From a virus (lineage: Duplodnaviria; Heunggongvirae; Uroviricota; Caudoviricetes), in IMG/VR virus record IMGVR_UViG_2541047699_000001: a stretch of DNA of 9,958 bases. One strand, 5' to 3'. A program made the position numbers and the translations under genes. The notes under the pieces were generated by a model. It did not search any database. It had not been told where the DNA came from and saw nothing but the letters and a program-made list of their open reading frames with translations. Each line of letters opens with the position of its first letter. Within the stretch, counting starts at the first letter, position 1. This document shows positions 2,564-4,901 of this stretch, in pieces.

Positions 2564-3307
2564 ATGACGAGTCCCGCACAGCGCCACATGATGCGGGTCT
2601 CGGCAGCGATAACCGCGCAGCGGGAAGCTGCCCCGCTGCGACATGCAACTGTCTATGAGCAGATGCTGGTTAAGCTCGCCGCAGACCAGCGCACACTGAA
2701 AGCGATTTATTCAAAAGAGCTGAAGGCCGCGAAAAAACGCGAACTGCTGCCGTTCTGGTTGCCGTGGGTGAACGGCGTGCTGGAGCAGGGCAAAGGTGCA
2801 CAGGATGACATTCTGATGACGGTCATGCTGTGGCGTCTGGATACCGGCGATATTGCCGGTGCGCTGGAGATTGCCCGTTATGCCCTGAAGTACGGTCTGA
2901 CCATGCCGGGTAAACACCGCCGCACCCCGCCGTACATGTTCACCGAGGAGGTAGCGCTTGCGGCCATGCGCGCCCACGCGGCCGGTGAGTCTGTGGATAC
3001 CCGCCTGCTGACGGAGACCCTTGAACTGACCGCCACGGCAGACATGCCTGATGAAGTGCGCGCAAAGCTGCACAAAATCACCGGTCTGTTTCTGCGTGAC
3101 GGTGGTGATGCCGCCGGTGCGCTGGCTCACCTGCAACGTGCGACACAGCTCGACTGTCAGGCAGGCGTCAAAAAAGAGATTGAACGACTGGAGCGGGAGC
3201 TGAAACCGAAGCCGGAGCCGCAGCCAAAAGCGGCCACCCGCGCCCCGCGTAAGACCCGGAGTGCGACACCGGCAAAACGTGGACGCCCGAAAAAGAAAGC
3301 CAGTTAA
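2564..3307 (+). CDS. M: Terminase endonuclease (small) subunit gpM
   Basis: 247-aa ORF starting 3 nt after the N stop, GGGAG Shine-Dalgarno; strongly basic, Pro-rich C-terminal tail ending ...PAKRGRPKKKAS; position and size as in P2 gpM. Confidence 0.9.
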   Translation: MTSPAQRHMMRVSAAITAQREAAPLRHATVYEQMLVKLAADQRTLKAIYSKELKAAKKRELLPFWLPWVNGVLEQGKGAQDDILMTVMLWRLDTGDIAGALEIARYALKYGLTMPGKHRRTPPYMFTEEVALAAMRAHAAGESVDTRLLTETLELTATADMPDEVRAKLHKITGLFLRDGGDAAGALAHLQRATQLDCQAGVKKEIERLERELKPKPEPQPKAATRAPRKTRSATPAKRGRPKKKAS

Positions 3308-3406
3308 CAACCGAATGCGCCCCGCGCCAGGGCGGCACGCCGGTCAGTGAGGGTGAATCACCTGACACTGCACCGGCGTCCACCGCCCGACTTTTCAGAG
3401 GTAGTC

Positions 3407-3916
3407 ATGATGACGCTGATTATTCCGCGAAAGGAGGCTCCTGTGTCCGGTGAGGGGACGGTGGTCATCCCGCAACCGGCAGGCGACGAGCCGGTGATTA
3501 AAAACACGTTCTTTTTTCCCGATATCGACCCGAAGCGCGTCCGGGAACGTATGCGCCTTGAGCAGACCGTCGCCCCCGCCCGTCTGCGTGAGGCCATCAA
3601 GTCAGGCATGGCGGAAACAAATGCGGAGCTGTACGAGTACCGCGAACAGAAAATTGCCGCCGGTTTTACGCGTCTGGCGGACGTTCCGGCAGACGATATC
3701 GACGGTGAAAGCATCAAAGTTTTTTACTACGAGCGCGCCGTGTGTGCGATGGCGACCGCGTCGCTTTATGAGCGTTATCGCGGCGTGGATGCCAGTGCGA
3801 AAGGCGACAAGAAGGCCGACAGCATTGACAGCACCATTGATGAGCTGTGGCGGGATATGCGCTGGGCAGTGGCGCGCATCCAGGACAAGCCGCGCTGCAT
3901 CGTGAGTCAAATCTGA
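3407..3916 (+). CDS. L: Head completion / stabilisation protein gpL
   Basis: ORF 3347..3916 begins at a GTG; I prefer the ATG at 3407 (MMTLIIPRKEAP...), which has GAGGTAG just upstream and gives 169 aa, the P2 gpL size as I recall it. Confidence 0.86.
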   Translation: MMTLIIPRKEAPVSGEGTVVIPQPAGDEPVIKNTFFFPDIDPKRVRERMRLEQTVAPARLREAIKSGMAETNAELYEYREQKIAAGFTRLADVPADDIDGESIKVFYYERAVCAMATASLYERYRGVDASAKGDKKADSIDSTIDELWRDMRWAVARIQDKPRCIVSQI

Positions 3917-4404: not shown

Positions 4405-4901
4405 TGCCGGTAATTAACACGCATCAGAATATCGCCGCCTTTCTCGACATGCTGGCCGTGTCCGAAGGGACGGCGAATCATCCGCTGACGAAAAACCGGG
4501 GCTATGACGTGATAGTCACCGGACTGGACGGAAAACCGGAAATCTTCACCGACTACAGTGACCACCCGTTCGCACATGGCCGACCGGCGAAGGTGTTTAA
4601 CCGTCGCGGTGAAAAATCCACGGCCTCCGGTCGCTATCAGCAGCTTTACCTGTTCTGGCCGCATTACCGCAAACAGCTTGCCCTGCCGGATTTCAGTCCG
4701 TTGTCACAGGACAGACTCGCCATTCAGTTGATCCGCGAACGCGGTGCGCTGGATGACATCCGGGCGGGGCGCATTGAGCGCGCCATTTCACGCTGTCGCA
4801 ATATCTGGGCGTCCCTGCCGGGTGCCGGTTACGGTCAGCGTGAGCATTCACTGGAAAAACTGGTCACCGTCTGGCGTACCGCTGGCGGCGTACCGGCTTA
4901 A
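4404..4901 (+). CDS. K: Endolysin gpK (lambda R-type lytic transglycosylase family)
   Basis: 165-aa ORF; N-terminal FLDMLAVSEGT motif with the catalytic Glu codon at 4464..4466, and an NIWASLPGAGYGQ motif, both closely resembling phage lambda R as I recall it; start overlaps the Y stop (TAATG). Confidence 0.92.
   Translation: MPVINTHQNIAAFLDMLAVSEGTANHPLTKNRGYDVIVTGLDGKPEIFTDYSDHPFAHGRPAKVFNRRGEKSTASGRYQQLYLFWPHYRKQLALPDFSPLSQDRLAIQLIRERGALDDIRAGRIERAISRCRNIWASLPGAGYGQREHSLEKLVTVWRTAGGVPA

Follow-up and report, generated by a model that had tools for sequence, protein, structure and literature searches.

An AT-hook-type motif in the basic C-terminal tail of gpM, the small terminase subunit of P2-type phages

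Small terminases, AT-hooks and the gpM tail

The canonical small terminase (TerS) is built from an N-terminal helix-turn-helix (HTH), an oligomerisation core, a stalk and a C-terminal moiety (PMC9611059). In the gp3 protein of phage P22, the basic C-terminal tail (residues ~140-162) is flexible and has been proposed to enter a DNA groove, and its deletion abolishes DNA binding (PMC9611059). AT-hooks are defined as motifs of 10-15 residues with a GRP core and basic flanks, and an extended, RNA-binding form (eAT-hook) has the layout (K/R)>3 - X6-20 - GRP - X6-20 - (K/R)>3 (PMC4615771). According to PMC11354804, AT-hooks typically act beside major-groove domains; the same paper quotes the Reeves consensus, TPKRPRGRPKK, and cites WhiB7 as a bacterial AT-hook protein. 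The xenogeneic silencers H-NS and Lsr2, which are the subject of PMC4466236, have an AT-hook-like Q/RGR motif. YffO, an Sf6-gp1-like protein from the CPZ-55 prophage, has an N-terminal GRP motif, PKKRGRPAK, which was noted by sequence inspection only (PMC10380284). This motif was the only related remark on AT-hooks and terminases retrieved in our full-text searches, and no description for the P2 family was found when AT-hook was searched for together with small terminase, phage terminase or gpM. The first-pass annotation of the DNA studied here had presented the motif as not known to have been described for P2 gpM, and the literature searches agree with it: the gpM hook is of a well-known class of motifs, previously undescribed for this protein family.

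Phage P2 is a classical model phage, the terminase of which also packages the satellite P4; it is a cos packager, whereas P22 is a pac packager. The window, that is, the whole stretch of 9,958 nucleotides analysed here (IMG/VR record IMGVR_UViG_2541047699_000001), is a P2-type (Peduovirus) late-gene region. The ORF at 2564..3307 (+ strand), with its stop codon at 3305-3307, was identified as gene M, encoding the 247-residue terminase small subunit gpM, from the ORF list, from its nucleotide identity to known sequences (98.3% with gene M of P2, AF063097; 98% with P2/Wphi gene M; 98.7% with Peduovirus P22H1), from the P2 record, in which the product of gene M is labelled gpM, terminase, and from the match of residues 35-164 to the Pfam family PF05944, Phage_term_smal (E 3.5e-48, 163.3 bits, profile positions 1-130 of 130). 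The nucleotide identity and the Pfam match bear out the original naming of the protein as a P2-type small terminase gpM. In P2, gene P, encoding the large terminase gpP, lies on the minus strand (L001 1224-2993), and its 3' end, corresponding to the C terminus of gpP, should occupy the minus strand where the window begins.

The AlphaFold2 model of gpM, obtained with an alignment of 130 sequences, had a mean pLDDT of 90.7 and contained ten helices extending to residue 213, which form a folded, all-helical, TPR-like core (aa 1-213; 2564..3202, + strand). The last core helix (aa 203-213, KKEIERLEREL; 3170-3202, + strand) was modelled with a pLDDT of ~98 and falls within a family-wide motif, GVKKDIERLERxLK. 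Residues 214-247 (nt 3203-3304) were modelled as coil, with pLDDT values of 63-71; these 34 residues include 13 K/R, one acidic residue and one Gly, and the tail is predicted to be unstructured, as the context of an AT-hook would be. The low-complexity tail had originally been taken to comprise the last ~45 residues. This description holds for aa 214-247, a low-confidence coil beside a confident helical core, but not for aa 203-213, which form the helix carrying the family-wide motif. The core has no recognisable DNA-binding fold, and gpM differs from a canonical small terminase in having neither an N-terminal HTH nor similarity to a solved TerS. A sequence search of the PDB identified no solved structure of a gpM family member; its only matches, to histone H1.0 tails (E 0.04-0.085), were rejected as compositional noise.

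Two parts can be distinguished in the tail. The first is a Pro/Lys/Thr/Ala-rich linker (aa 214-235, KPKPEPQPKAATRAPRKTRSAT; 3203..3268, + strand), delimited by the alignment and by the AlphaFold coil. The second is an AT-hook motif (aa 236-245, P-A-K-R-G-R-P-K-K-K; 3269..3298, + strand), assigned on the basis of sequence, PF02178 and conservation, with an R-G-R-P core at aa 239-242 (3278..3289, + strand), for which the evidence is the sequence and the variant count given below. From codon 238 onwards, the codons at 3275-3298 (aaa cgt gga cgc ccg aaa aag aaa) read KRGRPKKK, in exact agreement with the placement of K-R-G-R-P-K-K-K at 3275..3298 in the first-pass annotation, and are followed by Ala-Ser-stop (3299-3307).

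The gpM sequence TPAKRGRPKKK fits the Reeves consensus. Its Gly-Arg-Pro core is preceded by Arg (RGRP, aa 239-242), basic residues are found within 1-5 positions on both sides (K238 before RGRP and K243-K244-K245 after it), and the motif lies in the segment modelled as coil (aa 214-247, AlphaFold). The earlier proposal that the tail matches the AT-hook core is thus supported by the consensus fit and by the definition of a GRP with basic flanks. In Pfam scans of full-length gpM, PF05944 was the sole match, and AT_hook (PF02178) surfaced only when the tail was scanned alone, in which case it was the only match (12.3 bits, E 0.16). The profile scan favours the proposal in giving AT_hook as the sole match of the tail, with an HMGA1-like score, although this score lies below the Pfam gathering cut-off of 17.4. 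The RGRGRPRK variant of a relative scored 15.0 bits and the human HMGA1 control 16.2, both also below the cut-off; because this positive control fails too, the cut-off is uninformative for proteins with one to three hooks, and the gpM hooks score like genuine AT-hooks. Assignment to the extended, RNA-binding AT-hooks was rejected: gpM has just five residues between GRP and the stop codon, so a distal C-terminal basic patch is impossible and the definition does not apply.

Comparison with HMGA1 (PF02178/SM00384) revealed a shared RGRP core, K/R within 1-3 residues on both sides, a preceding T-P, a length of ~11 residues and a disordered basic context. The Pfam score of the gpM motif is comparable to those of HMGA1's own hooks, and the KRGRGRPRK form of the 186-type and Kosakonia-type proteins is almost identical to HMGA1 hook 1. 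Unlike HMGA1, gpM has one hook per chain rather than three, located at the extreme C terminus of a packaging protein, and minor-groove binding is what we infer for it. A single AT-hook alone binds DNA weakly, as is known from HMGA proteins, and the gpM hook could achieve multivalency only via gpM oligomerisation. P22 gp3 resembles gpM in having a flexible basic C-terminal moiety on a small terminase, but the gp3 tail binds the large terminase (TerL) and has no GRP core, and gp3 has a canonical N-terminal HTH and a ring, whereas the gpM core is TPR-like. YffO, like gpM, has an AT-hook-type GRP on a small-terminase-like protein; however, YffO and Sf6 gp1 belong to the HTH-type TerS family, with the motif in an N-terminal position beside the HTH, and the Sf6 gp1 motif, EPKAGRPSD, is poorly basic, unlike the gpM hook. 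WhiB7, H-NS and Lsr2 provide a prokaryotic parallel, as RGR-type minor-groove readers on unrelated domains, but they are transcription or silencing factors rather than packaging proteins, and the motifs of H-NS and Lsr2 are without the GRP proline.

Conservation and distribution of the motif

We shuffled the 34-residue tail 200,000 times. GRP was recovered in 3.1% of the shuffles, RGRP in 0.4% and [KR]RGRP[KR][KR] in 0.014%; the hook motif is not an accident of composition. Among the 120 closest cluster representatives, the full-length homologues with at least 64% identity, P0036 apart, end with the hook, in the form KRGRPKKK, KRGRPRK, KRGRPPK or KRGRGRPRK and, rarely, KRGPGRPRK; the PGRP variant was found once among the cluster representatives. 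The exceptions within these 120 were fragments, gene fusions, frameshifted singletons and the tail-less P0036. After realignment of 31 diverse proteins that bear the hook, a conservation profile gave mean pairwise identities of 0.74 (core), 0.36 (linker, aa 214-235) and 0.98 (RGRP). Residues P236, R239, G240, R241, P242 and K244 were conserved at 0.94-1.00 in the 31 proteins, with G240, R241, P242 and K244 invariant and P236 at 0.94, and the hook pattern within the clade can be written [KR]-R-G-R-P-[KRP]-K, the final K being the invariant K244. The linker is fast-evolving, length-variable and always basic, with only its opening x-P-K-P conserved, and the tails of the hook-bearing clade have 32-42 residues and a net charge of +8 to +14.

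A generic polycationic clamp on DNA or RNA, similar to the tails of histone H1 and P22 gp3 and with no preference for A/T or for the minor groove, might also display such features, the GRP then being kept for a Gly-Pro kink or for protection of the C terminus. We consider this unlikely. Such a clamp would agree with a net charge that is kept when the linker sequence is not, with a PDB search giving histone H1.0 tails only, with the basic tails without GRP of other family members and with the lack of hook-specific A/T enrichment near cos (both described below), but it fails to account for the fixed R-G-R-P, K244 and P236 amid a linker of 36% identity, and leaves the near-perfect match to the HMGA consensus unexplained.

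No amino-acid replacement was found in RGRP in 81 genes, which contained 24 distinct DNA variants of the motif. Every GGN codon and every CCN codon occurs among them, as do three to four different Arg codons at each Arg. This synonymous variety without replacement indicates selection on the peptide rather than on an overlapping DNA or RNA element. A conserved structured element is present just downstream (3317-3388) and the linker DNA contains a weak 6-bp repeat, as might be expected if conservation acted at the DNA or RNA level, through an element extending over the 3' end of M. This explanation is nevertheless largely refuted by the free third-codon variation within RGRP in the 24 variants, no Rfam family and no promoter-like or terminator-like site was found in 3000-3500, and the downstream hairpin is present in hook-less phages too. 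A neutral low-complexity accident is opposed by the shuffle probability of at most 0.4%, and we regard both accounts as highly improbable. The repeat itself is a tandem array of GGAGCC (x6; 3190..3225, + strand; TRF) that encodes ...ERELKPKPEPQP (the ELKPKPEPQP stretch). Two-codon indels occur in this stretch among close relatives (245/247/249 aa), with P0001, P0008 and the window showing indels of PEPQ/QP, and these differences in linker length are as expected of replication slippage.

The 50%-identity representatives were searched exhaustively with HMMER, which yielded 1038 members of the family, the best 150 of which were inspected for tails. None of the 99 full-length representatives at 34-52% identity among these best 150 had a tail GRP with basic flanks, and most of them have neutral or acidic tails that stop 0-30 residues past the conserved helix. 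The gpM proteins of Erwinia ENT90 (60% identity), Yersinia vB_YenM_06.16-2 (56%) and Escherichia Cartapus (50%) end right after the core, with no tail. The AT-hook tail is not, then, a family-wide feature of PF05944. In a neighbour-joining tree of the cores, the hook-bearing proteins formed one clade, the sister of ENT90 and YenM; this monophyletic group comprises Peduovirus, Eganvirus/186 and allied enterobacterial prophages, and the Eganvirus (186-type) gene R products bear AAKRGRPPKAVKTAG. Conservation of the GRP among gpM homologues, on which the proposal had been made to depend, is therefore observed within the P2/186 clade but not in the 99 distant representatives, ENT90, YenM_06.16-2 or Cartapus. 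As the hook-bearing proteins constitute one clade, we conclude that the hook was gained once and afterwards kept almost without exception, and its conservation in the P2/186 group and absence further out identify it as a real add-on rather than a core part of the packaging machine. The gpM hook would thus provide a clean natural case of a eukaryote-style AT-hook recruited and fixed in a phage lineage. Prophages with the segment 3100-3410 are present in 1495 of the 5426 complete E. coli genomes (27%), with at least 80% of its length covered, and the tail retained, in 1490 of the 1495.

Within the hook-bearing clade, P0036 is a tail-less singleton with 86% core identity to P0012, ending in ...ERLERALKRDSTGNNAR. 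It is encoded by a single contig only (L247 955-1626; Logan SRR28754784 contig), in which the tail is cleanly absent, the usual downstream sequence and hairpin are retained, and the neighbouring N, L and X are intact. P0036 is either a viable hook-less variant or part of a decaying prophage. Long K/R/T/A-rich basic tails without GRP were seen in the distant PF05944 members P0159, P0184, P0205, P0215 and P0227, which are loosely related (mutual identity 44-55%), and P0160, which stands apart from this set, also has a basic tail without GRP. Given these tails in distant homologues, cationic tails may have been acquired more than once in the family, and the presence of basic tails without GRP in at least one other lineage suggests recurrent selection for a cationic appendage.

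The cos core, gpP and the proposed role of the tail

The cos junctions of 80 hook-bearing, 80 ENT90-like and 80 Cartapus-like phages were rebuilt from viral contigs (L006-L245, e.g. L016 ~4790-4870; L002 1130-1194 plus L001 1-30 for P2), and the 177 distinct junctions (65 hook-bearing, 50 ENT90-like and 62 Cartapus-like) were compared. The junction positions conserved with P2 (~122-176) encompass the 19-nt cohesive end with 29 bp to its left and 7 bp to its right, and match the 55-bp cos core that PMC5694545 cites from Ziermann and Calendar. The consensus of this core is ATGCAnnTGCAT(T/G)AAAAcCG....AAGCGGGC / GGCGnGGCGGGGAnAGCAn / TGCGCGC; it includes an A/T tract (ATTAAAA in P2) that spans positions -25 to -19 relative to the left nick, and P4 retains TGCATTAAAACCGCCCCG at cos. 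The sequence ATGCAnnTGCAT, at the left edge of the core, is a palindrome abutting the A/T tract in most Peduoviridae, from all three groups; P2 itself has only its right half (TTAAGGTGCAT), and the DNA to the left of the palindrome is non-homologous between relatives.

A 7-bp W run was present at the tract in 54 of the 65 distinct hook-bearing loci, and in P4 as well. The variable base of the tract was T in 55/65 hook-bearing, 25/50 ENT90-like and 0/62 Cartapus-like loci, these groups being phylogenetically non-independent; the hook-less loci had TTAAAA in half of the ENT90-like set and TGAAAA in its remainder and in the Cartapus-like set. The ENT90-like and Cartapus-like phages have a near-identical cos core, including the A/T tract, some of them with the same 7-bp tract, and neither the AT content of the cos flanks nor the W-run counts were higher in the hook-bearing than in the hook-less groups (177 junctions). 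Co-variation of the hook with the tract was therefore rejected as evidence for a hook-specific site at cos, the tract being found in hook-less phages and the association being weak and phylogenetically confounded. Since the hook-less relatives share the cos core and its tract, the hook does not account for the tract, and the basic reaction can proceed without a hook; the hook cannot be the basic cos recogniser and adds affinity at most, as the first-pass annotation had cautiously suggested. Likewise, the general picture of packaging is unchanged, because close relatives do without the hook. The ATTAAAA tract is a plausible candidate docking site for it.

The N-terminal part of gpP contains an HTH (PF06056, Terminase_5, aa 12-69, overlapping HTH_23/HTH_28). 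In the usual arrangement, it is TerS that reads DNA via an HTH; with the HTH on gpP and a TPR-like gpM devoid of one, the division of labour between TerS and TerL may differ in P2-type terminases. The length of gpP (587-590 aa) and its N- and C-termini are alike in the hook-bearing, ENT90-like and Cartapus-like groups, and the comparison of these three groups identified no clade-specific extension or terminal change suggestive of a co-evolved tail receptor in gpP.

These observations bear on the possibility that the tail is a docking peptide for gpP or the portal, as the C-terminal parts of gpNu1 in lambda and gp3 in P22 are for their TerL, its likeness to an AT-hook being incidental, which we consider rather improbable. 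The C-terminal region of TerS does bind TerL in lambda and P22 (PMC9611059), and the gpM tail is terminal and predicted to be flexible. However, tail-less gpM proteins, sister or distant, pair with gpP proteins that are equal in length and conserved at both termini, so gpP binding must sit in the gpM core. Docking peptides, moreover, normally have hydrophobic or acidic anchors, rather than K/R-G-R-P-K.

We favour, with a probability of roughly 0.55, a role of the tail as an accessory disordered DNA-binding arm, in which a cationic, Pro-rich spacer and one AT-hook add affinity or architecture, with cos specificity residing elsewhere. The last 34 residues of gpM would constitute an intrinsically disordered polycationic arm, in which a rapidly evolving Pro/Lys-rich spacer of ~22 residues would tie a single AT-hook (TPAKRGRPKKK) to the TPR-like core. 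This arm would have been gained once, in the ancestor of Peduovirus (P2) and Eganvirus (186), inserted between the terminal helix and the context formed by the stop codon and hairpin, both of which are conserved. The R-G-R-P core would occupy the narrow minor groove at A/T runs, with the flanking Lys and Arg residues touching the backbone, and each gpM subunit would obtain in this way an additional DNA contact of low specificity. Sequence-specific reading would be performed elsewhere, plausibly by the N-terminal HTH of gpP. The most obvious dock would be the conserved ATTAAAA tract of the 55-bp cos core (-25 to -19 relative to the left nick), common to P2 and P4, and the hook would act as an accessory for affinity or architecture, not as a determinant of cos recognition. 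We infer the DNA binding of the tail, and likewise the groove, the site and the effect on packaging. As it consists of four conserved, mutable residues, RGRP offers a cheap handle on which subunit contacts which part of cos.

A more ambitious version of the accessory arm would be a bipartite cos reader, with the gpP HTH in the major groove and the gpM AT-hook inserted into the minor groove at ATTAAAA (19-25 bp from the nick), in which the gain of the hook, together with T rather than G in the tract, would sharpen the packaging of P2, 186 and P4 relative to co-resident hook-less Peduoviridae. We regard this version as doubtful; if true, an AT-hook would for the first time have been shown to serve in the recognition of a viral packaging site.

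The M-L intergenic hairpin

A structured element was observed at 3317-3388, in the M-L intergenic region, between the M stop codon (3307) and the start of L (~3408). It consists of two hairpins, a small one at 3317-3327 and then a long, GC-rich one at 3330-3388, and its folding energy of -50.7 kcal/mol (z -4.6) was equalled by no shuffle. The hairpin had no match in Rfam and bears no annotation in the record of P2; its role may be that of an intercistronic mRNA stabiliser, a processing site or an attenuator. Binding of the gpM tail to the RNA of this hairpin was considered and rejected: hook-less phages have the hairpin just as hook-bearing ones do, so the two show no association. The outer stem, GGGCGG/CCGCCC, is invariant, and the inner stem displays compensatory changes across genera, including the hook-less ENT90, YenM and Cartapus, with six pairs changed on both sides. 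The hairpin is better conserved than the adjacent upstream DNA encoding the tail.
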